A DNA stretch of 64,000 nucleotides, taken from assembly GCF_050320075.1 (NCBI RefSeq), contig NZ_CP190018.1; one strand, 5' to 3'. Positions 24,729 to 43,520 of the stretch are shown here, one piece after another (position 1 is the first letter of the stretch; every line of letters starts with the position of its first letter). Position numbers and translations under genes: made by a program. This DNA is from Escherichia coli (GTDB taxonomy: Bacteria; Pseudomonadota; Gammaproteobacteria; Enterobacterales; Enterobacteriaceae). The notes beneath the pieces are model-generated. The model made no database searches, was not told where the DNA came from, and saw only the letters and a program-made list of their open reading frames with translations.

Positions 24729-26729
24729 TCATCCTTGTTGCTGAAGCATGGGGAATAATTGTTCGCAAAGTAAAACACCGTTATTCATTGCTTCTACCCG
24801 TGCCTCGCTTTCTGTATTACGAAATTGTGCCAACACATGTGCCAGCCGATAAAAAACCACCGCGGTGAGGTCATTCGCCAGCAACTCTGCCTGACCAATA
24901 GCACTCTGTTCCTGATAGCGCCAGCCGTTATGGAGCAGTTGAATAAGTAACGCCTGGCAGCGCATCAGCAACTGATGAGCGGTAGACGGCACAGGCAAAA
25001 CGCTGGCAGAAGGTAGCGGTGCCACAGGCGCAGTTTCTGCGTCCAGCGCCCAGGCGCGGGTTTTGGTCATCATTACCCGTGGTTCCAGTGTCAATTGCCC
25101 CTCTACAAAGCTGACAAAGCCAGAAACCAGACTCACGGGGTCGTCTGTTTGTTGCAAAAGCGCCGCCATGCGTTCAACGGCAAAAGGAGAACAGGCAGAT
25201 GCCGGAAGGGATAACGTCAGCAGATTATCTTCACCTTCGCCGCTGATTACCTGCGCGTCCAGCGTCTGGCGGCTGCTATCCCAACCGAGTGAAATACACT
25301 CAGCGACTGGCAGAATAAATAAGTTATCCACCTGATTAAGAGGCCGTATGCAGGCGGGGGGACGCTGGCGTAAATATTCACGCAAAGCCACAATGCCCGG
25401 CTGGCGCAACGGCGCACTCAACATTTGCCAGGCGTCTGGCGACAGTGGAACAACACTACTCAAGCGGTTGCGGGTAGCTAACAGCAGCTCGCCATCGGCA
25501 CTGCGTTTTGCTGCTTGTGAAACAATTTGCCCACCAGCCAGTGCGCCAGCCTGAAAACTAAACAGCCGACGCGTCGCTGCCGGTGAGTTTTCCTGTTCGC
25601 TTCTCGGCCAACTACGCGAAAGATGCAAAATACTGCCGGTGTCGGGATCGGTAAACCAGATGCGTAAACCATACTGCTCAATATCCTGCCAGCAACGCAT
25701 ACCTAAAGACACCAGCCGCAGATGATCAAGCTTTGCTTCTCCGGCAATGCCAGCGCCAACGACCGTGCGCCACGGCATGGGAGGAACTTCACCAACACTG
25801 TCGCGCCGGGCCATCTCTTGTGCACAATTTAATCGATTGTTTAATGCCGCAAGCTGACGTAAGCATTCTCCGGCATGATAGTGGCTGGCGCGGGCGTGGA
25901 AGGCATCAACGCTGGCGCGCAGTTGCCGTAGCGATTCACTCACCCAGCGCCAGTTGCAGCGTTCCGCCGCTTGCTGCGCGCGGCTGAAAGCAGCCTCGTA
26001 ATGAATAAGCGGCTGGCTGATGCCGCCAAGCCATAACGCCTGGCTTAATTGCTGAACATATTGACGACACGCGTCCCCCTCATCGTTGGCAAACGGATCG
26101 TCAGATGATGTGACGTGTTCGCTGCGCATCTGCCAGATTAAATGAGTAAATTCCGCTTGCTGCGCTTTGGCCTGGACAAAGGCCTGTACTGCCAGTACGA
26201 CATGTTCGCAAAGTGTTCCTTCAATACAATCACAGCGAGCGAAACGAATGCTGCTGCGGGAATAAAAACGTACATCGCTCATCGGTAAGCGGGCAGAGGG
26301 AATTTCGCTCGGCGTACAGAACAACTCAATGGTGATGCCTTTAGCGACCAGTGCCTGTGCGCGTTTGCGGGTGGCATCGGGCAGGGTAGCCAGTTCTTCC
26401 AGCCAGATTGCCGGATCCCACTCTTCTTCTTTTTCCGTAGTCTGGGTGGTGGCGCAAAGTCGCTGATAACTTAAAACCAGCATCACGCGATGGCGGCACA
26501 TGCCGCTGGCCCCGCAGCTGCACTGAGCCTCTTTCAGTGCCTGACCGTTCGCCAGCTGGGTACGGACACCGTCACTGAAGGTGGCGATTAAAGCGCCGTT
26601 CTCATGGCTGATCTCCGGGACGTTGCCATTTTCCAGTTCCTTAAGACTGCGCTTAACAAAACCGGCATTGCTTAACGCTGTCAGGGCCTGCGGTGTCAGT
26701 TCTAATAATTCCGGACGTAGTGAATTCAT
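24729..26729 (-). CDS. yehQ: SWIM zinc-finger domain protein YehQ (two CxCx5CxH motifs)
   Basis: ATG 26727-26729 (MNSLRPELLELTPQ...); motifs CSCGASGMCRH and CDCIEGTLCEH seen in translation; start overlaps yehP stop (ATGA). Confidence 0.85.
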   Translation of the reverse strand: MNSLRPELLELTPQALTALSNAGFVKRSLKELENGNVPEISHENGALIATFSDGVRTQLANGQALKEAQCSCGASGMCRHRVMLVLSYQRLCATTQTTEKEEEWDPAIWLEELATLPDATRKRAQALVAKGITIELFCTPSEIPSARLPMSDVRFYSRSSIRFARCDCIEGTLCEHVVLAVQAFVQAKAQQAEFTHLIWQMRSEHVTSSDDPFANDEGDACRQYVQQLSQALWLGGISQPLIHYEAAFSRAQQAAERCNWRWVSESLRQLRASVDAFHARASHYHAGECLRQLAALNNRLNCAQEMARRDSVGEVPPMPWRTVVGAGIAGEAKLDHLRLVSLGMRCWQDIEQYGLRIWFTDPDTGSILHLSRSWPRSEQENSPAATRRLFSFQAGALAGGQIVSQAAKRSADGELLLATRNRLSSVVPLSPDAWQMLSAPLRQPGIVALREYLRQRPPACIRPLNQVDNLFILPVAECISLGWDSSRQTLDAQVISGEGEDNLLTLSLPASACSPFAVERMAALLQQTDDPVSLVSGFVSFVEGQLTLEPRVMMTKTRAWALDAETAPVAPLPSASVLPVPSTAHQLLMRCQALLIQLLHNGWRYQEQSAIGQAELLANDLTAVVFYRLAHVLAQFRNTESEARVEAMNNGVLLCEQLFPMLQQQG

Positions 26730-27862
26730 GACTGAAGATTCTCCGCAAGCCATGATGCCAGCTCGCCCGGTGTCATGGCGGCTATTTGTGCGCCGACATT
26801 AACCAGCGCCTGGGCCGTATCGTGGTCATAGCAAGGTGTTGCGGTGCTATCGAGCGCCGCCAGTCCCAGCACTTTGATGCCGCTCTGGACACACTTTTTC
26901 ACCTGATGCGTCAGTAATGATGATGAACCCCCTTCGTAAAAATCGCTCACGAGGATAATGACGCTTTTCGCTGGTTGTTCAATAAGTTGCCGACCATATT
27001 CCATGGCACTGGCGATATTGGTTCCGCCGCCTAATTGCACTTTCATTAATAACTCTACCGGATCGGCAACGTCTGCCGTGAGATCAACCACGCTGGTGTC
27101 AAACGCCACCAGATGGGTACGAATACCGGGTAACTGCCATAAACAGGCCGCCATCACCGCTGAGTGGATCACCGAGTCAACCATCGATCCGCTTTGATCA
27201 ACCAGTAAGACCAGTTGCCATTGATCGCTATGGCGCTTAATGCGGCTGTTAAAGCGGGGGGATTCGATATACAACTTGCCGTGTTGCGGATGCCAGTGTT
27301 GCAGGTTGGCACGCAGCGTACTTTTGAAATCGAAATTACGCGCCAGTGGAATAAATGAGCGACGGCGGCGATCGCGGACACCAGAAAAAGCCTGGCGAAC
27401 TTCCTTTGCCAGTCGCGCCATAATCTCTTCAACAACCTGGCGCACTATCCGGCGAGCGGCAGCCAGCACTTCGGGATTCATCAGATGTTTGGTGTGCAAA
27501 ACGGCGCGTAGCAGGCTTTCAGAAGGCTGCATACGTTCCAGTACGTCGAGATTCGTCACCACATCTTCAATGCCATAGCGCAGCACGGCATCGCTTTCCA
27601 GCCGCTCGATCACCTGTTGCGGAAACAGCGTGTGAATACTGTTGATCCACTCAGGGGTGGTGAGATTTGAGCAACCTAATCCACCGGAGCGTTCACCACG
27701 CTGGAGCCGTTCAGGATCGCGCCCATACAGCCACTCCAGCGCGTGGTCTATCTGCCGGGCATTGTCATCCAGCCCACAAAGGGTCGTTTCTGCCGCTTCG
27801 CCAAGAATTAATCGCCAGCGTTGTAGCTCACGGGTGGTCAGAAGATCGTTCAGTTCAGACAT
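26726..27862 (-). CDS. yehP: von Willebrand factor A (VWA) domain protein YehP
   Basis: ATG 27860-27862 (MSELNDLLTTRELQRW...); MIDAS motif DQSGS in LLVDQSGSMVDS; overlaps yehM stop by 8 bp. Confidence 0.85.
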   Translation of the reverse strand: MSELNDLLTTRELQRWRLILGEAAETTLCGLDDNARQIDHALEWLYGRDPERLQRGERSGGLGCSNLTTPEWINSIHTLFPQQVIERLESDAVLRYGIEDVVTNLDVLERMQPSESLLRAVLHTKHLMNPEVLAAARRIVRQVVEEIMARLAKEVRQAFSGVRDRRRRSFIPLARNFDFKSTLRANLQHWHPQHGKLYIESPRFNSRIKRHSDQWQLVLLVDQSGSMVDSVIHSAVMAACLWQLPGIRTHLVAFDTSVVDLTADVADPVELLMKVQLGGGTNIASAMEYGRQLIEQPAKSVIILVSDFYEGGSSSLLTHQVKKCVQSGIKVLGLAALDSTATPCYDHDTAQALVNVGAQIAAMTPGELASWLAENLQS

Positions 27863-30134
27863 GGAAAACTCCCCAGTGTTGCAGCGATGCCAGTGCCTGC
27901 TGTTCGAGTTGTTGATGATGTGCAATGGCTTGCGGTGGACAATGCAACGGCATTTGCAGTGCCGAAACGGGAAGTTGCGCCAGTTGATAATGCTCAAACA
28001 CCTGATGCGCCAGCGTCCCGCGTTCTCGTGGTGGTAGCCAGGCCATCGCCGCGCGTAAATCGGGCAGGGCGTTAATAAAATCGTCGTTACTCAGTTGATT
28101 TAAATGACTACTGAAACCGGCGATAAATGCCGGCTGACAGGCCAGTTGATGGCGGGCCAGCGCCAGCAAACCGTGCAGCGCTTCGCCGGATTGTGCCGGG
28201 GATAATTGCGCCAGCATTGTCAGCGCCGCTTCGGCACTGGCGTTGGGATGTTCCAGACGCATTAGTGCGCCAAGAGCCGCGCCGCGATCCAGCGCCGGGG
28301 CATGAATCGCCTGACTGCGGCGCTCCAGTAAGGCTACCGCCGCAGAAAGCGAAACGCCGGGTAAATTAACGCCGCTATGTAGATCGCGCAGGATATGGCA
28401 AAGCGCCTGCCAGCTATGCAGGTGAGCGTGAAACTCCTTTTCCTCCGGTTTGCCGTTGGATTCACACAGCCAGAGTGTGCGATCGATAGCCGCGCATAAC
28501 GTCGTCTGCAATATCTGCGCGCCTTGCATACCGCTGATTTCATCTAACCGCCATAAGGCATATAGCACTTCCAGCGCCTGGCCCATTTCGGCAAATTGAT
28601 TTTCCTGGGCGATTAATAATGTAAGTTGCTCCAGTAATTGTTGACTGAAAGACGCCAGACCCGCTAACGCCGCCTGGCTAAGACATGTGGTGATGATGCT
28701 GATTCCACCCGCGTCCAGCATATCGGCTTCTAATTTATGGCGTGCGGCTTCCTGGAGTGTGGCACCAAAGCAGGCGGCCTCAATCAATGCCGCATGCTGG
28801 CTAAGCGGGCGGGTTAATTTCCAGCATTCTTCACCGTTGCCTGCAAGTGACAGTGTACTTCCCTGCTGGCGCACAACCCCTGGGATCTCCAGTATTGCCA
28901 ACCGATGTAACACCTGACTTTGCGCCAGTCCATCGGGGGTAAAGCGATTTAAGGTAAGCTCCGCCGGAAGAGAGATTCCGGTACGTTCCAGTTCGCAGGT
29001 GACATCTTTTGGCAGAGGCGGTTGTGGCGTAGAAGGGGCAAGTTTACCGAATCCGTCACCCGCTAATGTGTCTATCAACGTTAGCAGAATCGGATCGGTA
29101 TCGGGATGAATAACGCCGCGATAGCTCCACGGCAACGGCGCGTTCAAGGCTTCTTTAATCAGCGAGCCTGCTATGGCATCCAGCCAGTCAGTGCGTAACG
29201 GTAGTGTATGACCGCGCAACTGTGCCAGCGCCATCGCATGCAGATGAGCGGCAGCCATATCAGCGGTAGAAGCGGGCAATTTGTGCTGGCGCAAACGGGT
29301 AAGGATAGTTTTTAGCAGTTGTTCACCGGCCTGCTGTAGGCCCCACTGCCAGCACCAGTTTTGCCAGACCGGGGCAGGCATACCAGAAAGGTATCCTGCC
29401 AGCACATCAAGGCGCTTTTCACTGTAGGGGGTGAGATAACAACCTGTAACGGCATCTGCCAGCTAGGGCAATTCCGGCGTGTTAATTTCCTGCGTGTATT
29501 CGCGCCACATCTTTGCCAGTGCCGGAGCATGCCAGCCGCCGCAGACGACTAACACGTCGCCATTGTTTTGCTGCATCGCCCATCCAATCCAGCGGGCCAT
29601 AAAGGCTTCGCGCTGACGATTGAGGGCATCTCCGGGGGAATCGCCCCGCAGTTGTGCAAAATAGTGCGCCAGCGCAGAGGGTAATGCAGTTTGCTGGCTT
29701 TCATCTTCGAACAAGTGATCCCACAGGGTGTCGCTGTTATCCATGCGGGTGGCACGCAGCAGTAAGGTCTGGCTGTCATCTTGCGTATCGGGTGATTCGT
29801 CTTCTTCTTCACTCTGCGCCCAGCAAGGCAAATCGATGAAGTAAGTTTGTGCCTGAATACGACGTGCGGCTTGTAGCGCCTGCCACTCCGGCGAAAATTC
29901 AGCAAATGGCGTCCAGGCACCACGCCCGGGGGCTGCACCGTCCTGATACTGGCAATAACTGTAAATAGCTACCGGAAGCTGGTGGGCTAAAAACAGTTCG
30001 TCTACCCGGTCATTAAAATCAGCCGGGCCTTCAATCAACACGTATCGTGGCCGCTGGCTTTCGATTAACGATTTCACCAGCCGGGCGCAGGCCGGACTAT
30101 GATGCCGGATGCCGACAATTAACGGCTCGCTCAT
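27855..30134 (-). pseudogene. yehM: yehM (759-codon frame) interrupted by a single in-frame TAG at 29463-29465
   Basis: ORFs 29463..30302 and 27855..29405 are in the same frame; codon-by-codon read gives ...INTPELP-stop-LADAVTGCYLTPYSEKRLDVLAGYLSGMPAP...; start MSEPLIVGIRHHSP at 30132-30134 with GAGGA RBS 10 bp after yehL stop. Confidence 0.75.
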
Positions 30135-30144
30135 GCATCTTTCC

Positions 30145-31222
30145 TCACGGCAGGCGGTGGCGGGCTTGATAATAAGCCTGCCAGTGAGCTTCTTTATGTG
30201 TGGCGACACGCTGTTCGAAGTAACGGCGCAGACGCGCGCGATCTTCTTCGTTATCTTTAACGATGGTTCCGGCAATACAGTCCACCAGATCGGCTGGCTC
30301 ACCTGCGCGATTCGCTAAAAACCAGGCGCGGACGCCCACTGCGTGGGCCACGTTCACGGCTTCAGCGGTGGATATAATTGCCGTCAGAGTATCCATTGAC
30401 GTTTTCTTTTCGCCGTTGGCACGCAGATCGCGGAAGGTGCGGACCAGTAACTCCAGTACCGCGTCAGGCACTTTATGCGGAATACCGCTATGGGCCAGCA
30501 AACGCGCCGAAGCACTGGCGACCAGTTCCAGCTCCTGGGCGAAATCCATAATCGGAAAGACGGTTTCAAAATCGAAGCGACGCTTTAGCGCGGCACTCAT
30601 CTCATTGACGCCGCGATCGCGGGTATTGGCAGTGGCAATAATATTAAAGCCTTCCCGCGCATAGAGCTGACTGGCTTCACCGGTGAGTTCCGGCACCGTC
30701 ATCACCCTGTCAGAAAGCATACCTAACAGACAGTCTTGTACTTCCAGCGGTGTACGCGTTATCTCTTCAAAACGGACGATTTTGCCGTCGCGCATTCCCT
30801 GGTAAAGCGGGGCAGGGACCAGTGCTTCCGTAGACGGACCATGGTTGATAAGCAGGGCGTAGTTCCATTTGATCTTCAGTAGTAGATGCGCCGCCCTGGA
30901 TGGTTAACCCGGCATCGCCGCTAATAGCGGTTGCCAGTAATTCAGACAGGAGAGATTTTGCGGTGCCCGGTTCCCCCACCAACATCAAACCGCGCCCGGT
31001 GGCAAGAGTGACTAACATACGTTCGACAGCGGAGGGACTAATCACCACTTTACGGCTAATATTTTGCGCGCTATCGCCAAGGATAAAAGCACGGGCCGCA
31101 GGCAAACTTAACTGCCAACCGGGCGGGCAAGGTGCGTTATCATTTTGTTTTAATTTTGCCAGTTCATCGGCGTATAACACAGCAGCAGGCGGACGCTGCA
31201 GATGATTATTCTGCGGTGACAT
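30145..31222 (-). pseudogene. yehL: yehL, MoxR-type AAA+ ATPase, split by a frameshift into two overlapping frames
   Basis: N-terminal frame ([12 protein letters not shown]...Walker [11 protein letters not shown]...GGASTTEDQ) ends at 30767; C-terminal part (…[41 protein letters not shown]…ATANTRD…) is in another frame bounded upstream by a stop at 30904-30906; total span 1078 nt is not a multiple of 3. Confidence 0.75.
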
Positions 31223-31338
31223 ATATTCATCCCTGAAATGTATTAATGAAATAAACGATATTTTACGCGCAATAAATGTTTGGCGCATTAGTTGTTTGAG
31301 CGAAAAATATCTGGAAAGCAGATCACAGTAAATAAAAA

Positions 31339-31365
31339 AACCTGCTGGTGAGGCAGGTTCTTTTA
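31339..31365 (-). terminator. Hairpin flanked by A7 (left) and T4 (right); reads as strong intrinsic terminator for minus-strand transcripts
   Basis: AAAAAAACCTGCTGGTGAGGCAGGTTCTTTT; rc gives stem followed by U7. Confidence 0.5.
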
Positions 31366-31445
31366 TTTACTATTTTCAGGCCCAACACCGCAGCCTGTGC
31401 AACATCGTGTTCCAACGAACGAATTATAACCATCGGTGGACCCCG

Positions 31446-31473
31446 TTGCAATTAAGATAATGAGATTTATAAT
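31446..31473 (+). promoter_or_regulatory. Candidate sigma70 promoter TTGCAA-N16-TATAAT upstream of small ORF
   Basis: -35 TTGCAA at 31446-31451, -10 TATAAT at 31468-31473, 16-bp spacer. Confidence 0.4.
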
Positions 31474-31654
31474 CCAGACGGTTGGGACGTTGCGCCGGAT
31501 CGGACCAATTTTAAGTCCTGGCTACCGGACGGGTGGTGCTGCAGGTGGTGCCCTGATCCGGAGTGCAACATCGTGGTCCAACATACGTAAACCAGTATCG
31601 ACAGGCAGTGTAAGGGTAAGGTGCTGGTGTTGCGCTCCTTAATAAGGAGAGCGG

Positions 31655-31744
31655 ATGGACACGCTGACACAAAAGTTAACCGTGCTCATTGCCGTACTGG
31701 AGCTATTAGTGGCTCTGTTACGGTTGATTGATTTGTTGAAGTAA
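31655..31744 (+). CDS. Candidate 29-aa small hydrophobic/amphipathic protein (unnamed; not in ORF track)
   Basis: AAGGAGA Shine-Dalgarno 7 nt upstream of ATG 31655; translation MDTLTQKLTVLIAVLELLVALLRLIDLLK; followed by hairpin terminator. Confidence 0.35.
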   Translation: MDTLTQKLTVLIAVLELLVALLRLIDLLK

Positions 31745-31765
31745 TGGGCAAATTGAAACGCATCT

Positions 31766-31790
31766 AAGGGGGAATACCGTTTCCCCCTTT
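31766..31790 (+). terminator. Hairpin AAGGGGGAATACCGTTTCCCCCTTT after the small ORF and immediately beyond yehK stop
   Basis: 7-bp G/C stem, then TTT AATAAA. Confidence 0.4.
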
Positions 31791-31797
31791 AATAAAG

Positions 31798-32118
31798 CTA
31801 TTTTTCTATTTCTTGGTTGAATATATTCTGTAGTTCGGGATTAAAAATGGCTATTACCGTTTCTGGTGATTCGCCCCGTAATTTTCGCTCATCAATAAAC
31901 TCATCTCTTATATAAATCAACGCATCATTTATTAGCGGGTCGACATCCTCTCGATCACGTTGATGAAATGTTGGATGTAGCCGGAATCGCTCCAGTCGGT
32001 AGACGGAACCTGTAAATAATTCAGAGCATTTATGGATCTCAAGTCTGAAGGAAAACGGATCTTCAGGTACAGGGACCTCATAATCGTAAATAGCAACCAG
32101 CTCTTTTTGCACGATCAT
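31798..32118 (-). CDS. yehK: Uncharacterised small protein YehK
   Basis: 106-aa ORF MIVQKELVAIYDYEVPVPEDPFSFRLEIHKCSELFTGSVYRLERF...; ATG verified. Confidence 0.85.
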   Translation of the reverse strand: MIVQKELVAIYDYEVPVPEDPFSFRLEIHKCSELFTGSVYRLERFRLHPTFHQRDREDVDPLINDALIYIRDEFIDERKLRGESPETVIAIFNPELQNIFNQEIEK

Positions 32119-32178
32119 CGCTTTTCCCGGTGGCAGGTCGTGTTAATAACGGGCAGTCGCATCACTGCCCGCTGTGTT

Positions 32179-35100
32179 TTAATGGAAAATGACGTCGGGT
32201 GCGCTTAACGCTTCACTCAAATCAAACACATCAAGTTCGGCAAAAGTGACAGATTTATTGTCACGGTATACATGAAGAGAACGGAAGCTCATTAGCGCTT
32301 TGCTATCAACATTGTAGTGGTTAAAACCGGATGAAAACTTAAGGACCAGCCGGTACTCGCCCAGGTCATAGACAAATGCATTCTCATAGCCTGACTCCCA
32401 GCCTTTGTATCGCATTCCCATAAGTTGCCCAACGGTAGCAGATTTACCTTCCCAGCGATTCAAACTATTACTGGCTGACTCGTCAGGCGTGAGCAGTACT
32501 GTGCGCCGTGCCAATTGGCGAAAAGGCGGCATAATTTCGTAATCGGCAAAAAGCTGTGCAAACTCACTGCGCATTTCTGCTGCCATTTCTAACGGGTGGG
32601 CAATGCCAATCAGAGCATCGGCAGGCAGGTCAATTGGCTCATCTTGCTCATTGCAGAACTCCCCCTCAGCGGCCACACGAAAGGCGTTGAGTAAACGACG
32701 CGGTTCATTTGCCGGATAAACACCCCATATTAATCGCTGAGTAACCAGACGGGTAAAGGGATGATTAACAAACAGAGAATGAAAATCTGCCAGCGACCAG
32801 CGTCGGGTGGTGCGCAGGGCAGTTTCAAGACGCGGGAGCAGGTTTTTGCTCACCTGAGTGGCATCTTTTTTTAGCCCTTTTAGTCGGGCCAGTGCCTCGG
32901 GTGCTTTCAGTTGATCGTCATCGGCGCGCAACCGGGGAACGCTTTTCTGGCGAACGTTTTGCTGATCAAAGATAACCGGGTTAAGGTTTTCATCGAAGCG
33001 AACGGTAAATTGCCGTGGACCAAAATCAAAAATCAACGCCTGCGGATCATCAAGACCCAGTGTTGGGACTAATCTGTCCGCTAACTGTTCCTGGCTTAGC
33101 CCTCGATTTTCTGCGACCACCTGAAGAAATTCCGCCGCGTTATCACGTAAGGGGCGGGATTTCGCCCGTTGCGATATATGATGCAGCTGTATCAGTGCCA
33201 TATCATTATTCATCTGAGTAAGTATGTTCAGGCCGCTGACGGCACGGGCAGATTTGCCTTCCTGTGGCCAGGCAAGGATCTGTGTCGTCAGATCCCGTGC
33301 CGTGCTTTCGTCGCCAAAGAGACTTAACGCCAGAAATGCCCAGTTGTCTTTTGCGGGAGCACCAGCTTGTTGCCACGCGGTGAAAAGATCCCAGGCAAAA
33401 GCTGCCAGCGTTTGCGGCTGGCAGAAAGTTTTCAGTTGTTCCAGTCCGCTATAAAAACGTCCGCCCTGGGTAAAGCGCAGCATTTCGCCGATAATTTCCA
33501 GTGCGTCATCGGTAACAGGCTGATTATTCGTGATAAGGCGCGGCCTGGACCACATTGCCGGCTGCCAGAAATCAGGGGCTTTTGGAATGCGTGTCGGGTA
33601 AATCTCTATTGGACTCTGTTTAAGTAAATGCTCCAGGGCAGGCCATACATCTGTACGCTGCCAGCGGTTTGCCGCGGTTTGCAGCAATTCACCATGTCCC
33701 TGTTCGTAAAGTAAACGTAGGGCAAGTAATGCAGCTTCGCTATTATCGCTGGATTTGGTGAAGACAAGAGGGATAAGTGCAGTAGCCGTATGTTCCGGCC
33801 ATTGTAAAATCCACTGGCGAGCCAGATCACGCTGCGCCGCGAAACGTCGCCAGACGCGGGCAACGGGCAGGGCCAGTTCTGTTGCGCCAAAATTTAAAAT
33901 TAACGGAAATGTTTCTTTTGGACGATATGAAAAAGCCAACAGCAGACCTGGTAGAGCATCCAATCCGAAGATACTGAGAAAATAGTCCTCACCCGCGAAC
34001 AGATGCTTTTTCTCATTGATACGTAGCCAGAAAGTCAAAGCTATCTCACGCGGCAACTGTGCCAATAAATACAGGTTCCAGATACTCTTTTCCCGACGAT
34101 AGCGTGAGTAGCTGTCATTTTCCCATATGTTAATTAACACTTCTACGTGACCGCTGCGAAGCGCCTGTTCTGCTAATTGTGCTTCCGGGGAGTTCCAGCC
34201 ATTCAGGATCTCTTCAACCCGCCCCTGGTAGTAATGCCACTGAACAATGAGTGAATTGCGTGCAGCATCCAGTTTTCCGGGGAGTATATAATTCAGAAAC
34301 AGCCATACATCATCTCCAAAACCCAGCTCCTGTAGTACAACTCGTCCACTTTTATGTTCCATGCGTTCCGCAAGAGATTCCGTGCTGAAATAACGGGCAG
34401 ACTCAGTGGCGGCAAGCCTCTCTCGTTCGCCTGGTTGCCAGTAAACTTGCGGCGTTAATTCGAACGGTGCCAAATCAAGACGTGGAACTGTCATTTTTTT
34501 CTTACTACGCCACGGTGGTGAAACGAGGATTTCAGGCATTTGGCTGTTATCGGTGCTATCAATAACCGTTTTAGGCGGTGCCGATAAATAACTATTCAGC
34601 ACTGACCGGGCTTGAGTACTTAACCACGGCATCACCTCTTCTGCCAGTTGTGGCTGCGATGCCATCAGCGTTTGTAACAGCGTACGCCAGTATTCATCAC
34701 GTGCTTTTTGCTGTGCAGGCAGCTTTTTGTCTTCGATGATTGGATAACCAGGGCGCGTAGGTGGTTCTTTTAGCGCCAGCAGTTCTGCCAGTGCGGCAAG
34801 CGTCGCATGGGGGAAATTTTTACTGTATTTAGCTACACGTTGCAGGCTGGGTTTGTTTTTATCAGCAACTAACAGCAGGGTGCGGATGACCTGCGGATGG
34901 TTAATTTGTACCAGCAGACTGCCGCAATCTTCTTTATGGGCATACATTGCCAGGCGTGGAACGGCTGCCAGTCCTTGTTCGCGCAAAAGGGCAGCGCAGG
35001 CCGCGTAGCCGAAGTGGTTTTCATGCGACATGTAGCTGGCTTCCCGATCGCTAAATATATCCTGGCTCCAGTAGCGTTCGAGTTTTCTCACCGCTCTGGG

Positions 35101-35811
35101 GTCAATAGCAACAACTTTTAACCACTCCTTAGAATGAAAATGAGTCCACGGGCATTCAAGGCTTACCAACTCATTGGCGATTTCTGGTTTTTCCGGGAGG
35201 ATCAGAGCAATAAAAGGGCGGCGAACTTTGGTTATTCCTGGCAGTGCGGCAATGAGTTTGTCGGCGCAACGCTGCCAGCTGCTTTCCTCTGCCAGAGAGA
35301 GATGCTTACGCAGTCGGAGATCGAATTCGTTATAGGTTTCTGATCGATAACCATAGCCATAATCCTCGTTCTGATACTGCAATGTCACTAGCAGAGGATC
35401 ACTTTCATAACATCGTGTAATAAACTGGCGTGCAATCACCACCTCAGTCGCATATTCCAGTCCCTCTTGTTGGACGATTTCGTCGAGCAACTGTTGGCTA
35501 TCATTTTGCGCGATACAGGCTAGCGCCGCCATTGTCCGGGCCGGAACTGAGGGTTTGTGTTCGCCAATCAAGTTGATGGCCTGCGTAATGGCCGACTGCC
35601 ACTCCAGTGAAAAATTTTCATAACGCCAGACAATGTTTTTTTTCTTCTCAGCTTTTTGTAGCAATTCATCACCCAGTGTCTGGATGAGGCTTTCAGTGAT
35701 AACAGGCACCGGTTCGCCCGGCCAACTGCGATGGCTGAGCGGCGTTTTGCCTTTTTTATATTTCAGTTCCACTTGGGCGTTATCCGCCAGCCACGGTAAT
35801 TCCTTGTCCAT
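32179..35811 (-). CDS. yehI: Giant MolR-family protein YehI (1210 aa, DUF4132-like, no N-terminal WGR domain)
   Basis: MDKELPWLADNAQVELKYKKGK...; shares blocks with the two upstream paralogues (RKHLSLAEES.WQ.C..KLIAA.P, LDFGPRQFTV, RLIWGVY, LFADYE..PPFRQL); ATG 9 bp downstream of preceding gene stop. Confidence 0.9.
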   Translation of the reverse strand: MDKELPWLADNAQVELKYKKGKTPLSHRSWPGEPVPVITESLIQTLGDELLQKAEKKKNIVWRYENFSLEWQSAITQAINLIGEHKPSVPARTMAALACIAQNDSQQLLDEIVQQEGLEYATEVVIARQFITRCYESDPLLVTLQYQNEDYGYGYRSETYNEFDLRLRKHLSLAEESSWQRCADKLIAALPGITKVRRPFIALILPEKPEIANELVSLECPWTHFHSKEWLKVVAIDPRAVRKLERYWSQDIFSDREASYMSHENHFGYAACAALLREQGLAAVPRLAMYAHKEDCGSLLVQINHPQVIRTLLLVADKNKPSLQRVAKYSKNFPHATLAALAELLALKEPPTRPGYPIIEDKKLPAQQKARDEYWRTLLQTLMASQPQLAEEVMPWLSTQARSVLNSYLSAPPKTVIDSTDNSQMPEILVSPPWRSKKKMTVPRLDLAPFELTPQVYWQPGERERLAATESARYFSTESLAERMEHKSGRVVLQELGFGDDVWLFLNYILPGKLDAARNSLIVQWHYYQGRVEEILNGWNSPEAQLAEQALRSGHVEVLINIWENDSYSRYRREKSIWNLYLLAQLPREIALTFWLRINEKKHLFAGEDYFLSIFGLDALPGLLLAFSYRPKETFPLILNFGATELALPVARVWRRFAAQRDLARQWILQWPEHTATALIPLVFTKSSDNSEAALLALRLLYEQGHGELLQTAANRWQRTDVWPALEHLLKQSPIEIYPTRIPKAPDFWQPAMWSRPRLITNNQPVTDDALEIIGEMLRFTQGGRFYSGLEQLKTFCQPQTLAAFAWDLFTAWQQAGAPAKDNWAFLALSLFGDESTARDLTTQILAWPQEGKSARAVSGLNILTQMNNDMALIQLHHISQRAKSRPLRDNAAEFLQVVAENRGLSQEQLADRLVPTLGLDDPQALIFDFGPRQFTVRFDENLNPVIFDQQNVRQKSVPRLRADDDQLKAPEALARLKGLKKDATQVSKNLLPRLETALRTTRRWSLADFHSLFVNHPFTRLVTQRLIWGVYPANEPRRLLNAFRVAAEGEFCNEQDEPIDLPADALIGIAHPLEMAAEMRSEFAQLFADYEIMPPFRQLARRTVLLTPDESASNSLNRWEGKSATVGQLMGMRYKGWESGYENAFVYDLGEYRLVLKFSSGFNHYNVDSKALMSFRSLHVYRDNKSVTFAELDVFDLSEALSAPDVIFH

Positions 35812-35820
35812 GCTCTTTCC

Positions 35821-38800
35821 TTATTCAAACAGGGCTTCAATATCGTTAATGAGTTCGCTGGCGGTGATGTCGTCGAGCACGGAGAACTGCGCTTCCTGAG
35901 TTGAATTACTCCCCCAGCCATAGCTTTCCGCTTTGCCTTCCCATAGCCACAGCTTGCTTAAGACCTGCTCAGCGCTAAGATCGGCTGGTGACATACCCAC
36001 CGCAAAACCTTCGTCGATTTCCATGATTAACGACCAGCGACCGAGAGGTTTGATCATCCATCCGATCCAGCCTCCATCCTGTGGTTCGCCCTTTATCCAG
36101 CCTTTATTTGCCAGCCCCATGACCCGGCCGCTCGGGCATTTTCTGCCTGCCCAGCGGGTCAGTTCGCTGGCGTTGCGCTCGGCTTCTGTCAGGGCGTAAC
36201 TGTTACGTTCAAGCTGACGGAACGGTGGTAGCAGTTCGTAGTCGGCAAAAAGCTGACCAAAGGCGACAGCATCCGTCGGTGATATTTCCAGAACGTGAGG
36301 AATGCCAACAGAGATATCGCCTTCCTGCAAGGTGAAAAGATCATCGTCAGCGGTGCTGTAGCTGTTATCTTCCGCCACCCTAAAGCACGCCTGTAGCTGG
36401 TTTTCGGCGCTATAAACGCCCCAAATCAGACGGCGGGTTAAGTGACGAACCAGCGGATGCTCAACCAGGAAGAGCTGAAAGTTTTCCGGCGACCAGCGGC
36501 GGCGCAGGCACATGGCGGATTCCAGCCTTGCTACCTGCTGGGCGGCGACGGTACGCGCATCTTTTTTCAGCAATTTGTAGCGGTTAACAGCATCGTTTGC
36601 CTGTGATTCATCATCGCTTTTATTGGGTTTAGGTAAGTCTTTCAGGCGGCTGCCGGAAACATCGCGCACAAACGGTTTTAAGGTTTCATCAAAGCTGACG
36701 GTGAACTGCCGTGGGCCAAAATCCAGCAGCAGCGAACCGTTATCATCCAGACCGAGAGCCGGTGCTAACCGATCTTCAAGCTCCGCTACCGTCAGTTCGC
36801 GACTTTCGGCAATGTCGGCAATTTTCTCTTTCGCCCGCTCCTGTAATGCTTTGAATTTCAGTTTCTGGGCAATGCCGTTAAGCTGCATCAGGGCGATATC
36901 ACTACTGATAGCGGCGAGGATATCCAGCCCGACGGTGGCGCGTTTATGCTGGGATTCACCAGGCCAGGCGCGTATTAATGGCGTCAGTTTGCGGGCGGTG
37001 TCATCGTTACCGAGAACGCCTAACGCAGTGAACGCCCAACTCTCTTTCGACGGCGCGCCAGCGGTCTGCCAGGCGGTAAACAGATCCCAGGCAAATTCAG
37101 CCAGTGAGTCGGCGGTACAGGCATCTTTCACCTGCAATAATCCCGGATACAGCGCCTCCTCCTGATGGAAGCGGAGCATTTCACCGAGGTGCTGGAGTGC
37201 GCTATCGGGCAGTGATTGGGCATTTGCTTTTAATACCGGGCGGGTCCAGATCGATGGCTGATAAAAGGCCGGAAGAGTGGGGATTTTTGTCGGGTGATTA
37301 TCTAAGGGATCGAGCGCAAGCATAGCGTTCACCGCATCTGTTACTTCCGGCTGGTTATAACGCCGGGCGATTTCTTGCAGTAATGGTTGATGACCGTTTT
37401 CGGTAAGCATACGCAATGCAGCGCGGGCGTTATCCTGTGCTTCACCGGCTTTGCCGAGCGCCGCAGACAGCAGGCCGGTAATGGCGTGTTCCGGGTATTT
37501 CAGCAGCCAGGTGCGGGCGTCTTGTCGTAGGGTTTTGAGTTTGTTGAAGGCGCGGGCGACGGCAGGTGCCAGCTCACTCGCTGCGAAGTAATTCGTTATG
37601 GGCAAGGCTTCCTGTGGATAGCGTGCAAGTGAGTTTACTAACCCAGGTAATCCTTTGAGTCCAAAATGTAACATGGCGTATTCGGTATCGGTATGCGGAG
37701 ATAGAGTAAGGGCATTCCATGCTCTTACTGCTTTCTCCAGCGGCAATGTTGTCAAAATCCCCAAATGCCAATAATGCCCGGTAGGTGAATGAAACACCTT
37801 AAATTCACTTATTAAAGTTGAATAATCTTCATTTAGCCATGCCTCAACTACCGCTTCGGGAGCTTTAATATATGTACCAGCGATCCGTCGTTGAAAACCC
37901 ATCCTTGCCAACAGATTGGCAGTACTTTCTTCATGACTAACCGTGATGTGTTTTGAATACCAGATATATTTCGCCAAAAGTTGATTACTGATTTCTTCTG
38001 TCAGATAACTGATTGGCTCAATACCTAATGGTGCTAAATCAAGCACTGGAATCGGCGATTTTTTCTTTTTCGAAAGCCATGGTGGGGAGACTACTATGGC
38101 CGGCAGTAGATCGGCGCTGGCATGGTTTGAGGGCTGTGTCAGTTGTTGCTGGCATGATTTCAGCACTGCAACTGCGGGTGTCGAAAGCCAGGGAATGACC
38201 TGTTCTGCTAGTGTCGGTTGCGAGATAAGCATCGTCATTAGCATAATGCGCCAACTATTCTCTTCTTTTTGCACTAGAAGTTCCGCCAGTGCTGCCAGTG
38301 CTGCGTGTGGGAACGCAGCGCAGGCTTTCGTCATTCGATCGTGACAGCGTTTAGTATGCCCTGCTACACGTATAAGCAGTGTTAATGCGAACGGATGATT
38401 GATATGACGCAACACATCGGCGCAGTAGTCACTTGCGACATAGGGAGCAAATCGGGGCAGGGCCGCAACACCTTGCTCCTGTAATACGGTGGCTGACCAT
38501 ATCGCACCACAATAGTAATCATCAAAAATGGCATATGGCTCGTGATATTTTTCTAATGAGGCAAGAATGTGCTCATCAGTCGCCACTATTTTTAGCCACT
38601 CCAGCGAGGGTAATTTCTTTTGCCCCAGTAGACGCTGGGCAATTTCATGTGCAATTTCTGGTTTTTCGGGCAATAACAAAGCAATTAATGGTTGCCGCCA
38701 TTCTGGAATATGTGGAACTGCGGCAATAAGTTTTTGTGCACATTTTTGCCAGAGAGACTCTTCCGCCAGTGATAAATGTTTACGTAGGCGTAATTCAAAG

Positions 38801-39615
38801 CTGGAATATTGCTGCAAATAATCAGGTGAAATGCCAGACGACAGGAAAACAATATTATTGTTGACATAATCCCATTCAATAGATATTTGTTGAAGATGTA
38901 TTATTACATCAGTAGCATATTCCAGACCGCCTTCCTGAATAATCTGATCCATAACATCCGCACGCTCTTTATATCTCGTGCAGTGCAGTTCAAGTGCCGC
39001 GAGTACAGCCATTACCGGTGATGGTAATTTTGTCGTTTTCGGGCTGTTAATCAGATCGATCGCCTGAGCGATGAAGTTTTGCCACTCTAAAGTACAGGCG
39101 CTGAAGTCAAATGTAGCTGTTTTGTTATCCCGTTGCGACACGCCACAGGCTAAGCGACGTAACTGGGTTAATTTATCTACAGGTGTAACAGGATCTCCGG
39201 GAAAGCGGCGATGGCTTAAGGTGGTGGGTACGACTTCAAGCGGAAAAACGACAGCAATATCTTTTGCCAGCCACGGTAAAATAACGTCTGTATTTTTGTC
39301 AGCCACGTAGAATTCTGGTGTAACTGAGGGCTGTTCCTGAATGATGGTAGAAAAGTCAGATAATTCGAGAGATTTCGTTACCGTTCGAGTATGTTTCGAT
39401 GTAGCATTCTCCGCATGTTCCACATACCCCTTTTTCGTTTTCTCCGCAATCAGCTTGAGTTCCGCTTTTTCCGCCGCCGCAGCATCTGCAAAGCTTTTTA
39501 CCTGACTTTGCCCGTTGGTGCCGACTTTGCCCCAACTGATATTCAGTTCGTTTCCCTGCTGCTCCACCGCCCAGAATTTATGTGATTTTTCGTCCTGATA
39601 AATATAGGTTTTCAT
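35821..39615 (-). CDS. Giant WGR-domain MolR/YehH-family protein, paralogue A (1264 aa)
   Basis: N-terminal WGR domain MKTYIYQDEKSHKFWAVEQQGNELNISWGKVGTNGQSQVKSFADAAAAEKAELKLIAEKTKKGY; remainder homologous to YehI and paralogue B; 12-bp gap with AAGGA RBS after paralogue B stop. Confidence 0.85.
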   Translation of the reverse strand: MKTYIYQDEKSHKFWAVEQQGNELNISWGKVGTNGQSQVKSFADAAAAEKAELKLIAEKTKKGYVEHAENATSKHTRTVTKSLELSDFSTIIQEQPSVTPEFYVADKNTDVILPWLAKDIAVVFPLEVVPTTLSHRRFPGDPVTPVDKLTQLRRLACGVSQRDNKTATFDFSACTLEWQNFIAQAIDLINSPKTTKLPSPVMAVLAALELHCTRYKERADVMDQIIQEGGLEYATDVIIHLQQISIEWDYVNNNIVFLSSGISPDYLQQYSSFELRLRKHLSLAEESLWQKCAQKLIAAVPHIPEWRQPLIALLLPEKPEIAHEIAQRLLGQKKLPSLEWLKIVATDEHILASLEKYHEPYAIFDDYYCGAIWSATVLQEQGVAALPRFAPYVASDYCADVLRHINHPFALTLLIRVAGHTKRCHDRMTKACAAFPHAALAALAELLVQKEENSWRIMLMTMLISQPTLAEQVIPWLSTPAVAVLKSCQQQLTQPSNHASADLLPAIVVSPPWLSKKKKSPIPVLDLAPLGIEPISYLTEEISNQLLAKYIWYSKHITVSHEESTANLLARMGFQRRIAGTYIKAPEAVVEAWLNEDYSTLISEFKVFHSPTGHYWHLGILTTLPLEKAVRAWNALTLSPHTDTEYAMLHFGLKGLPGLVNSLARYPQEALPITNYFAASELAPAVARAFNKLKTLRQDARTWLLKYPEHAITGLLSAALGKAGEAQDNARAALRMLTENGHQPLLQEIARRYNQPEVTDAVNAMLALDPLDNHPTKIPTLPAFYQPSIWTRPVLKANAQSLPDSALQHLGEMLRFHQEEALYPGLLQVKDACTADSLAEFAWDLFTAWQTAGAPSKESWAFTALGVLGNDDTARKLTPLIRAWPGESQHKRATVGLDILAAISSDIALMQLNGIAQKLKFKALQERAKEKIADIAESRELTVAELEDRLAPALGLDDNGSLLLDFGPRQFTVSFDETLKPFVRDVSGSRLKDLPKPNKSDDESQANDAVNRYKLLKKDARTVAAQQVARLESAMCLRRRWSPENFQLFLVEHPLVRHLTRRLIWGVYSAENQLQACFRVAEDNSYSTADDDLFTLQEGDISVGIPHVLEISPTDAVAFGQLFADYELLPPFRQLERNSYALTEAERNASELTRWAGRKCPSGRVMGLANKGWIKGEPQDGGWIGWMIKPLGRWSLIMEIDEGFAVGMSPADLSAEQVLSKLWLWEGKAESYGWGSNSTQEAQFSVLDDITASELINDIEALFE

Positions 39616-39627
39616 TGCAAAGTCCTT

Positions 39628-42600: not shown

Positions 42601-43425
42601 TGGGGATAGCGAGGGAATAGCAGCGAGAACTTTATCTACACAGCGTTGCCACTCATCTTCTGAAGCGAGTGAAAGATGATGACATAGACGTTGATGCCAG
42701 TTCGGTAGTGATTCTGCTTTGAGATCAGGGGGAATAATGGTGGTGACGTCGGCTTTTACTGGTTTATATTTGAGTTGAAGAGCGAGAAGGGCGATTTCAA
42801 CGGTAGTTTCCAGACCACAGCGAATGACTAAGTCATCGACCAGTTCATCTGTAGAGTAAGAGTTCCATAAATTCCAGAGCAATGCCGCATCAGATTGTAT
42901 ACTTCCTGTTTGTTGATTATTCAGAATTCGCCTTTGTAACTCGGCAAACGCCAGCTGCCAGTTTTCAGGATAAGAGCGGTAATTATTGTCGGGGTCATAT
43001 GCCCTGGTGTTATTCGCGATGCGCTTCCATATTTGGCCATCTTTGTACAGATAATTGATCTCTCTGGGGCGAGAGCGATGAGGAAAAGCAAATCGATTAA
43101 TATCGCCAGTTACCGGAATGACTGCATCATCAGCCACCCATGGGCGTTTGTTTTTACTCTCAGGGGAGGTTTCAACTTCAGGAGTGGCTTTGGTGATGGG
43201 GGGGATATGCACGTTTGCTAAAGCATTTTCCACATAGCCTTTTTTCGTTTTCTCTGCGATCAGCTTAAGCTCCGCTTTTGCCGCTGCCGCAGCATCCGCA
43301 AAACTTTTTACCTGGTTTTGCCCTTTGGTGCCAACTTTTCCCCAACAGATATGCAACTCGTTTCCCTGTTGCTCCACCGCCCAGAATTTATGTGATTTTT
43401 CGTCCTGAAAGATAAAGTGCCTCAT
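39628..43425 (-). CDS. Giant WGR-domain MolR/YehH-family protein, paralogue B (1265 aa)
   Basis: N-terminal WGR domain MRHFIFQDEKSHKFWAVEQQGNELHICWGKVGTKGQNQVKSFADAAAAAKAELKLIAEKTKKGY; C-terminal blocks LDFGPRQFTVGFDETLKPVV, RRVLWGVY, IYADYEKLPPFRQL, ELINDIESLFD. Confidence 0.85.
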   Translation of the reverse strand: MRHFIFQDEKSHKFWAVEQQGNELHICWGKVGTKGQNQVKSFADAAAAAKAELKLIAEKTKKGYVENALANVHIPPITKATPEVETSPESKNKRPWVADDAVIPVTGDINRFAFPHRSRPREINYLYKDGQIWKRIANNTRAYDPDNNYRSYPENWQLAFAELQRRILNNQQTGSIQSDAALLWNLWNSYSTDELVDDLVIRCGLETTVEIALLALQLKYKPVKADVTTIIPPDLKAESLPNWHQRLCHHLSLASEDEWQRCVDKVLAAIPSLSPARQPFAALLLPERPDIANAMALRYADQNVPAMTWLRLVVTDDAALTTAEKYDFPPLYHDFRAYLAMLLANNGVRGVSRILLEFTEEHSDNPTYLFERISETEDLVKWLWKTNHPDAIQILILGVIGKKKHLEYLSKACQKHPAAALAAYATLLAIHEDAQWRKALVKLITATPDLVTDVIPWVNAKAAGILSECRTQLVAEECEYATADMLPELFVAPPWVINKKTNVIPVFDLPVLPIPAVTDITPGITELISHTDISRFSEIAQYQSSQQTLFTDLPLIEKESWETSFIPFTPEQQILWQLGFNEWLHCEDDLHEKKYIPQSAVDALLRFDFPALKAEFAKYHNNANKSWNLSALCYLPGQQAISFLNQIIIEERYSGEKEILAVFGSTAIPAFMTCLQRDHQRLWIFTLFIGASELALPMAQRLQKKMAYKDAINWLANNPRHAAAGLLPLALGKPCQNREYARQAFRLLVKLNQRETIEEIGRRYNQPDVLAALATLFDSDPLEEYPAKIAPLPGFYQFTLWRRPRLKSNNLPLPDDAMRHLGTMLSFPRDITSYAGLATIKETFTHESLADFGWDLYTAWTEAGAPAKENWAFTSLGILGNDDTARKLTPLIRAWPGESQHKRAVYGLDVLADIGSDVALMLLNGIARKIKFKALQEHAREKINIVAENRGLTMAELEDRLAPDLGLDNSGSLILDFGPRQFTVGFDETLKPVVHDANGKVLKDLPKPNQSDDQTLATDSVNLFKQLKKDVHAIASQQIDRLEQDMCQRRRWTAEQFRLFLVEHPLVRHLTRRVLWGVYTEENTLIACFRVAEDSTYSDAQDELFTLPAGNIGIPHVLEISPESATAFGQIYADYEKLPPFRQLDRGYYHLTDNERDTHELIRWQGRLCQAGRIVGLERRGWQRLEESGSVYAMRKSTPYGALELETEHFSLIYGETGYSDLLPVESVKITSPGERYSTQPSLTFSALDAITASELINDIESLFD

Positions 43426-43520
43426 TCTGCATCCCTGTAATTTTATCCAGTTGAATGCTGATGCTACCAGTATTTATGCGGGTTAGAGAGAGACAAAATC
43501 GCAAGAAAACAACTTTAGGA

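Follow-up and report, generated by a model that had tools for sequence, protein, structure and literature searches.

The yehLMPQ–DUF4132 locus of Escherichia coli: a conserved cassette of a MoxR-class ATPase, a VWA protein and giant WGR/DUF4132 proteins

MoxR-class AAA+ proteins are generally seen as maturation chaperones (PMC3893208, PMC9976466), and in the general mode described for their pairs with von Willebrand factor A (VWA) proteins a hexamer is combined with a single VWA adaptor, whose metal ion-dependent adhesion site (MIDAS) binds the client (PMC9976466). Here we describe a locus with such a pair at positions 24729–43425 of a 64,000-nucleotide stretch of the Escherichia coli contig NZ_CP190018.1 (the whole stretch is termed the window). 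The locus comprises yehL, yehM, yehP and yehQ (yehLMPQ, termed the engine) and three giant partner genes of the DUF4132 family, i.e. paralogue B, paralogue A (molR in strain K-12) and yehI. The genes yehLMPQ and molR/yehI are long-standing function-unknown genes of K-12; to our knowledge, YehL is the sole K-12 MoxR subfamily without a known client.

The genes yehLMPQ and the DUF4132 genes are one real system, found as one cassette from Enterobacteria to Actinomycetes; for this self-contained five-family system we favour a DNA-damage-linked role, with a probability of about 0.4. The literature searched assigns no function to the locus, does not treat the five families as one system and does not note the TIKI-like head of DUF5682 proteins described below; the genes and their domains had been recorded before, as had the YehL subfamily. 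An initial annotation, made from the sequence, had proposed a candidate undescribed system. The lack of an assigned function stands, and the word undescribed does not, since YehL already counts among the seven MoxR subfamilies that have been named, without a function being assigned to it (PMC3893208), and molR is a listed gene of the LexA regulon with a known SOS box (PMC6590174). The SOS box of the window, the predicted TIKI/TraB-like domain of YehM, the zorO/orzO insertion, and a near-core engine set against variable DUF4132 genes go beyond that annotation.

The cassette across bacteria and in the window

Eighty-seven loci were fetched around YehM homologues of 24–70% identity, from Enterobacterales, Xanthomonadales, Burkholderiales, Myxococcota and many Actinomycetota, and their open reading frames (ORFs) were classed by profiles for which the E. 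coli proteins served as seeds; six of the loci were also labelled independently with Pfam. The gene order is near-invariant: one to five DUF4132 genes are followed by yehL, yehM, yehP and yehQ, on a single strand and mostly abutting. The DUF4132 genes lie directly upstream of yehL-yehM-yehP-yehQ in 77 of the 87 loci, representing at least four phyla, and for many of the loci without a DUF4132 gene the contig end falls just upstream. Because this adjacency is so widely kept, the two units into which the E. coli genes fall (paralogue B to yehK, and yehL to yehQ) belong together; the co-occurrence outside E. coli, which the initial annotation had left to a survey of gene neighbourhoods, is thereby confirmed. 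The yehP gene is located two genes 3' of yehL in the window and in 84/87 related loci, and three-copy DUF4132 arrays, as in the window, occur in at least 16 loci. Five of 147 representatives of the YehM family are natural YehM–YehP fusions, which is direct evidence for a joint action of the two proteins.

YehM homologues form 2245 clusters at 50% identity and are present in at least 559 of 100,044 species genomes. The flanks of the cassette are unrelated between genera, and no sixth recurrent gene family was found in the flanks of the 87 loci beyond genus-level synteny. In some genomes, a second yehL-yehM-yehP cassette or extra genes were observed (locus L008, 15598–23468; locus L009, 3–3591), in which a protein of ~500 residues and a HEAT_2 protein (580–690 residues) occupy the usual place of the WGR-DUF4132 gene; this arrangement suggests alternative partner modules for the same engine. 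Three of the six loci labelled with Pfam also contain, no more than a few kb away from the cassette, genes of DNA metabolism, which is an anecdotal observation (RecJ, PriA, a glycosylase of the UDG family and the C-terminal domain of an ATP-dependent DNA ligase; L005, 927–2648; L006, 72–752 and 18025–20205; L008, 207–1712).

The window represents the metG–yehR region of the E. coli chromosome, with 100% identity to chromosomes such as Ecol_545, whose RefSeq annotation agrees with the gene list of the initial annotation and flags both yehL and yehM as pseudogenes. It spans osmF/yehWXY and btsSR, then yehR and yehQ through to metG, and the yehABCD fimbrial genes. The locus is composed of the following features:

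43433–43452, minus strand: LexA (SOS) box AACTGGATAAAATTACAGGG, ending 8 nt upstream of the paralogue B start codon
39628–43425, minus strand: paralogue B, 1265 residues, intact; WGR, HEAT-like solenoid and DUF4132 (Pfam)
35821–39615, minus strand: paralogue A, 1264 residues, intact; WGR, solenoid and DUF4132; full-length form of K-12 yehF/yehH (molR)
32179–35811, minus strand: yehI, 1210 residues, intact; solenoid and DUF4132 (Pfam DUF4132, 1e-46), without WGR head
31798–32118, minus strand: yehK, 106 residues
30145–31222, minus strand: yehL pseudogene, MoxR-class AAA+ (AAA_5); Walker A at 30953–30976, 11-bp deletion after ~30868
27855–30134, minus strand: yehM pseudogene, DUF5682; TAG at codon 224 (29463–29465), predicted N-terminal TIKI/TraB-like domain at ~29415–30134
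26726–27862, minus strand: yehP, intact, VWA_CoxE with full MIDAS; DQSGS at 27185–27199, then GGGT and SDF
24729–26729, minus strand: yehQ, 666 residues, intact, SWIM zinc-finger protein; finger 1 at 26490–26522, finger 2 at 26202–26234

In the order paralogue B, paralogue A, yehI, yehK, yehL, yehM, yehP and yehQ, the spacings are 12, 9, 60, 575, 10, −8 and −4 bp. The gene coordinates, the strand, the 12- and 9-bp gaps, the 10-bp gap and the 8- and 4-bp overlaps of the initial annotation are all confirmed. Its description of 24729–43425 as a unidirectional block is right for the minus strand and too narrow in its limits, the same-direction gene run extending from metG through yehR. The small gene yehK is probably not a core part of the cassette: no counterpart was detected with jackhmmer in the 87 related loci, none lies beside the cassette outside Escherichia, and no Pfam, NCBIfam or PADLOC match was obtained.

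Domains and predicted functions of the encoded proteins

The domain calls of the initial annotation (WGR, DUF4132, AAA_5, VWA and SWIM) hold by Pfam, and the motifs that it had listed (GEPGTAKS, ATAN, DQSGS, two CxCx5CxH and WGKVG) are all present in the translations. An NCBIfam scan of ten products of the region returned weak GvpN, MadB and cobaltochelatase matches and the WGR part of a Leptospira family, and nothing else; sequence searches of YehI, YehM, YehP and YehQ against PDB chains gave no match.

YehM (Pfam DUF5682, 3e-98) is represented by a confident AlphaFold model (predicted local distance difference test, pLDDT, 92.3). Its N-terminal domain has a parallel beta-sheet core flanked by helices, resembling solved TIKI/TraB/ChaN/Ere members, and the protein beyond this head is a helical solenoid of ~500 residues. 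Invariant in 71 homologues are H11, E35, R175/E176, G199 and H202 (G199xxH202), which sit at core-strand ends in the model; G8, which completes a first GxxH (G8xxH11), is kept in the consensus only. These invariant residues may correspond to the His/Glu/Arg set of active TIKI/Ere hydrolases (PMC6254334), and the first Glu of the RRSP E-x-H pair (PMC6254334) is absent from YehM. Sub-threshold Pfam matches were obtained for four of the 71 homologues, three to the ChaN family (best 5.5e-3) and one to TraB (1.7e-2), and against the PDB the YehM profile matched nothing but spurious helical proteins. From fold and motifs, the N-terminus of YehM is a predicted hydrolase fold of the TIKI/TraB/ChaN type.

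The partner proteins share a C-terminal DUF4132 module. Paralogue B matches Pfam WGR (1e-17, residues 5–67) and DUF4132 (9e-48, residues 999–1182), and the WGR heads of the paralogues match PDB entry 2ra8 (5e-19) and the PARP3 WGR (5e-3); no WGR is found in YehI. Paralogues B and A are 43% identical overall, with ~75–87% identity in the WGR head and the C-terminal third, and paralogue A is 38% identical to YehI. Among 101 long DUF4132 ORFs of the related loci, a WGR head is present in 64 and absent from 37, and YehI is therefore of a type that is a regular member of the family. In the model of paralogue A (residues 65–1264, pLDDT 89.5), a long HEAT-like solenoid leads into an alpha/beta module. 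Structure searches with this model returned generic helical-repeat proteins only, and the DUF4132 family profile matches the WGR heads of PARP3 and 2ra8 as well as alphaRep/HEAT repeats. Every column that is invariant in the family falls within the C-terminal ~400 residues, with variation in the N-terminal and middle regions. As E. coli alleles were all that a homologue search with paralogue A returned, the diversity of the partners was assessed in the fetched loci. Pfam detected neither a helix-turn-helix nor any other regulator domain in paralogue B or YehI.

YehL, analysed as the intact K-12 allele, is an AAA_5 protein (Pfam, 9e-33), in which the motifs GEPGTAKS and ATAN were confirmed by search, with FEEI at the Walker B position; FEEI as Walker B and ALKRRF as arginine finger were read off the translation. 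By sequence, midasin AAA modules come closest to it among solved proteins (2.5e-7), and a weak match to bpMoxR was also obtained (E 0.0076). YehP belongs to the VWA_CoxE family (Pfam, 3e-70), and the MIDAS is complete in the intact protein of the window (DQSGS at residues 222–226, then GGGT and SDF); a weak NCBIfam match to a putative cobaltochelatase subunit was noted. The two SWIM fingers proposed for YehQ differ in their support: the first holds (Pfam 1e-3; C70, C72, C78 and H80 kept in at least 97% of 78 homologues), and the second falls short (Pfam 0.21; found in 43 of 79 homologues). Judged by the homologues, the first finger is invariant and the second optional.

Regulation and variation in E. 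coli

The SOS box upstream of paralogue B, AACTGGATAAAATTACAGGG, is the best CTG-N10-CAG site in the window and agrees with the consensus at 13 of 20 positions; it is identical in K-12, where it lies upstream of yehF/molR. The first gene of the locus carries the molR LexA box, and LexA control is predicted. In line with a link to DNA damage, in Deinococcus radiodurans the DUF4132 protein DRA0166 and the WGR protein DR2173 are DdrO targets, with protein levels raised after mitomycin C (PMC8533742).

Population patterns were counted in 5426 complete E. coli genomes, paralogue B at a coverage of at least 80%. The engine is near-core (5202/5426), mostly at 95–99% identity, the same band as most matches to metG, which is near-universal like yehLMPQ. 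Paralogue B, by comparison, is accessory (1629/5426, ~30%), with alleles of 87–94% nucleotide identity. The alleles of paralogue A are mosaic: residues ~500–700 share only 32–68% protein identity with the commonest allele, compared with 92–100% elsewhere, and in comparison with a different allele it is the first 300 residues that diverge, with synonymous divergence (dS) up to 0.57 and a ratio of nonsynonymous to synonymous divergence (dN/dS) below 0.45. No positive selection was found on paralogue A by crude pairwise dN/dS (0.04–0.43, at very high dS), which suggests old recombining segments rather than positive selection; these segments were possibly exchanged between paralogues.

The initial annotation had reported yehL and yehM as disrupted and the other genes as intact, and the comparison with K-12 bears this out. 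The yehL gene has lost 11 bp after ~30868, between Walker A and Walker B, leading to a frameshift, and codon 224 of yehM is changed from TCG to TAG. The engine of the window strain is thus predicted to be dead (yehL frameshift, yehM nonsense), with all three partner genes intact. The TAG lies nearly at the boundary between the head (residues 1–240) and the solenoid of YehM, and 58 nt downstream of it a GTG reopens the frame for 516 codons; yehM may therefore be expressed as two pieces and not be fully dead. Database fragments of YehM of similar length are common (508 residues, 613 members; 424 residues, 1108 members). Other strains carry other lesions: in K-12 (locus L002), yehF/yehH (molR) is broken and yehQ lacks its last 52 residues; in p10A (locus L091), yehI is frameshifted and an IS1 insertion sequence lies beside yehQ; and in sublineage L1a of sequence type ST131, a resistance transposon is located in the metG/DUF4132/yeh region (PMC9334617). 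Since K-12 and the window strain differ in their broken parts, experiments need an intact allele set.

The 575-bp spacer between yehK and yehL contains a type I toxin-antitoxin locus, with the following features:

31334–31744, within the yehK–yehL spacer: zorO/orzO type I toxin-antitoxin locus
31655–31744, plus strand: ZorO toxin, a 29-residue ORF MDTLTQKLTVLIAVLELLVALLRLIDLLK
31334–31409, minus strand: OrzO antitoxin RNA (Rfam RF02083, 101 bits)

Divergent promoter-like sites (~31423–31473) and terminator-like hairpins were also found in this spacer, which measures 306 bp in K-12 and 305 bp in p10A; judged by spacer length, both strains appear to be without zorO/orzO.

Proposed mechanism, competing readings and comparison with known systems

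The proposed mechanism is drawn by analogy with NorQ–NorD, CbbQ–CbbO, RavA–ViaA and midasin (PMC9976466) as to docking, remodelling, hydrolytic output and biological role. YehL would form a MoxR-class AAA+ ring holding one YehP adaptor, whose MIDAS would grip the partner protein; YehM would be a scaffold that bridges to YehP and contributes the TIKI/TraB-like hydrolase head, and YehQ would be the SWIM zinc-finger subunit of the constant engine. The interchangeable partners, one to five giants with an optional nucleic-acid-binding WGR head, a HEAT-like solenoid of ~800 residues and the conserved C-terminal DUF4132 module, would dock onto the engine through this module, and, as in PARPs, the WGR head would bring the partner to DNA ends or lesions. 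Through YehP, the hydrolysis of ATP by YehL could remodel the solenoid, and this remodelling would license the YehM hydrolase to cut a bound target or the partner itself. We favour a DNA-damage-linked role over a dedicated role in immunity because the first partner gene in E. coli is under predicted LexA control.

Several results weigh against this interpretation. Serratia, Burkholderiales and Xanthomonadales showed no LexA-type box upstream of the cassette, and a search of the actinobacterial loci for the box of their own type (GAAC-N4-GTTC) was likewise negative; the SOS link may be Escherichia-specific. No nuclease, ligase, polymerase or other DNA-processing domain was found in the cassette, and the system is dispensable in E. 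coli, given recurrent independent lesions across lineages. The assignment of the YehM head lacks a significant profile match: aligned by hhalign with TraB (YbaP), as a single sequence or as a 14-sequence profile, the YehM profile gave a probability below 1%.

The strongest competitor is immunity against phages or mobile elements, which we consider possible and less likely than a role in DNA damage. The WGR-solenoid arrays would be diversified sensors of foreign nucleic acids or proteins, the MoxR-VWA engine would turn on YehM as effector, e.g. for abortive infection, and SOS control would couple the system to prophage induction or invading DNA. This would fit the one to five tandem, giant, sensor-like paralogues beside a constant engine in many taxa, the near-core engine with paralogue B in only 1629/5426 genomes, the mosaic alleles of paralogue A, the patchy phyletic distribution with unrelated flanks between genera, and the recurrent independent loss of function. 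Kaur, Burroughs, Iyer and Aravind reportedly described MoxR-vWA 'ternary' conflict systems in 2020. MoxR-vWA modules are also reportedly described in conflict systems in a preprint (bioRxiv 10.1101/2023.09.22.558884), and the TIKI fold is used by the bacterial toxins and effectors RRSP, HopBA1 and PMT (PMC6254334). However, all ten products gave zero matches in PADLOC-DB 2.0 (E ≤ 0.01); in the six loci labelled with Pfam, housekeeping genes surround the cassette and no recognised defence gene was seen, and hence no sign there of the defence-island context that the initial annotation had thought worth checking; and the E. coli position between metG and yehR is fixed. A YehM homologue occurs in 38 of 72,556 plasmid records, most of those listed being megaplasmids or misfiled chromosomes, and in one doubtful case among 50,697 phage records, and pairwise dN/dS is below 1 throughout paralogue A. 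The resemblance to systems for NTP-dependent sensing of nucleic acids, put forward in the initial annotation, is reduced to an analogy by the missing PADLOC matches, the housekeeping flanks, the rarity on plasmids and the near absence from phages. In its most extended form, immunity would mean a widespread, unrecognised immune or surveillance system, with WGR-HEAT-DUF4132 sensors, ATP-driven proofreading or amplification by MoxR-VWA and YehM as a licensed TIKI-type protease, wired to the SOS response in E. coli; we regard this as doubtful, and slightly more so than immunity as such.

A chaperone for cofactor insertion or assembly, of the classical MoxR-VWA type (CoxD/CoxE, NorQ/NorD, CbbQ/CbbO, CobNST, BchHID) and with the DUF4132 proteins as clients or carriers, is unlikely. 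It would fit the old name 'molybdate metabolism regulator', the VWA_CoxE assignment of YehP with its weak cobaltochelatase-subunit match, and the general view of MoxR proteins mentioned at the outset; a protein of ~1250 residues with an AAA_5 ATPase and a VWA protein also mirrors class I chelatase architecture. It was rejected on account of the flanks, in which no enzyme or metalloprotein gene recurs beside the cassette, and of the domains: the DUF4132 proteins show WGR, HEAT-like repeats and DUF4132 only, and no CobN/BchH or other enzyme domain. It also leaves the WGR head, the SWIM finger, the TIKI-like hydrolase and the SOS box unexplained, and depletion of DdrO in Deinococcus raised the DUF4132 operon drA0165-drA0166 with the molybdate genes unchanged (PMC8533742). 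That the DUF4132/WGR proteins are MolR-type DNA-binding transcription regulators, with yehLMPQ as an unrelated neighbouring operon and the juxtaposition incidental, is the least probable reading, and very improbable. WGR has been described as the DNA-binding domain of 'MolR-like TFs' (transcription factors; PMC7824862), and the E. coli units are split by 575 bp with terminator-like hairpins and a toxin-antitoxin locus. Against this, order and adjacency are kept across phyla, mostly with very short spacers, in 77/87 loci, and this conserved synteny largely refutes an unrelated operon; in addition, 37 of 101 family members are without WGR, and the 1200-residue solenoids carry no helix-turn-helix or other regulator domain.

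One cassette from Enterobacteria to Actinomycetes, a hydrolase-type site predicted in DUF5682 and giant partners that vary around a constant engine together make up a testable machine. If it is a module of the DNA-damage response or of immunity, MoxR-VWA biology would gain a TIKI-type hydrolase as an output and WGR-HEAT arrays as a class of sensors, both of them new to it, and an SOS-regulated gene that has been without a role for 25 years would be explained.

In comparison with known systems, the WGR heads of paralogues A and B resemble those of PARPs (Pfam WGR, 1e-17; PARP3 WGR, 5e-3), whereas the ADP-ribosyltransferase domain of PARPs is missing, and the WGR is joined to a solenoid, with a third of the family doing without it. 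Within the TIKI/TraB/ChaN/erythromycin-esterase superfamily (Tiki, RRSP, HopBA1, EreB, ChaN), YehM would stand apart by a sequence similarity below significance and by the fusion of its domain to a 500-residue solenoid inside a MoxR-VWA cassette. The giants of class I chelatases (CobN-CobS-CobT; BchH-BchI-BchD) differ in fold from those found here, which are HEAT-like solenoids bearing DUF4132 and WGR and are encoded in arrays of one to five genes. With the MoxR-vWA 'ternary' conflict systems, as these are reportedly built, the cassette shares the MoxR-vWA pair, large diversifying partners and a hydrolytic component (here predicted), but none of the named effector domains, VMAP, beta-propeller, caspase and TIR among them, was detected in it, and it has neither a defence-island context nor a PADLOC match.

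Midasin/Rea1, the eukaryotic AAA+ protein of ribosome assembly with a helical linker and a C-terminal MIDAS, provides the closest solved sequences to YehL; AAA_5 ring, solenoid and MIDAS are all present in the cassette, and the YehM–YehP fusions likewise join a solenoid to a VWA domain. In contrast to midasin, which has neither a TIKI-like head nor a SWIM finger, these parts are encoded by separate small genes, with one AAA module per chain instead of six. The pairs RavA–ViaA, CbbQ–CbbO, NorQ–NorD and CoxD–CoxE share with the cassette an AAA_5 MoxR ATPase gene near a VWA gene with a complete MIDAS, YehP being of the CoxE type. Unlike these pairs, yehLMPQ has no enzyme client encoded nearby, and the cassette adds a DUF5682 protein with a predicted TIKI-like head, a SWIM protein and one to five WGR-solenoid-DUF4132 proteins.

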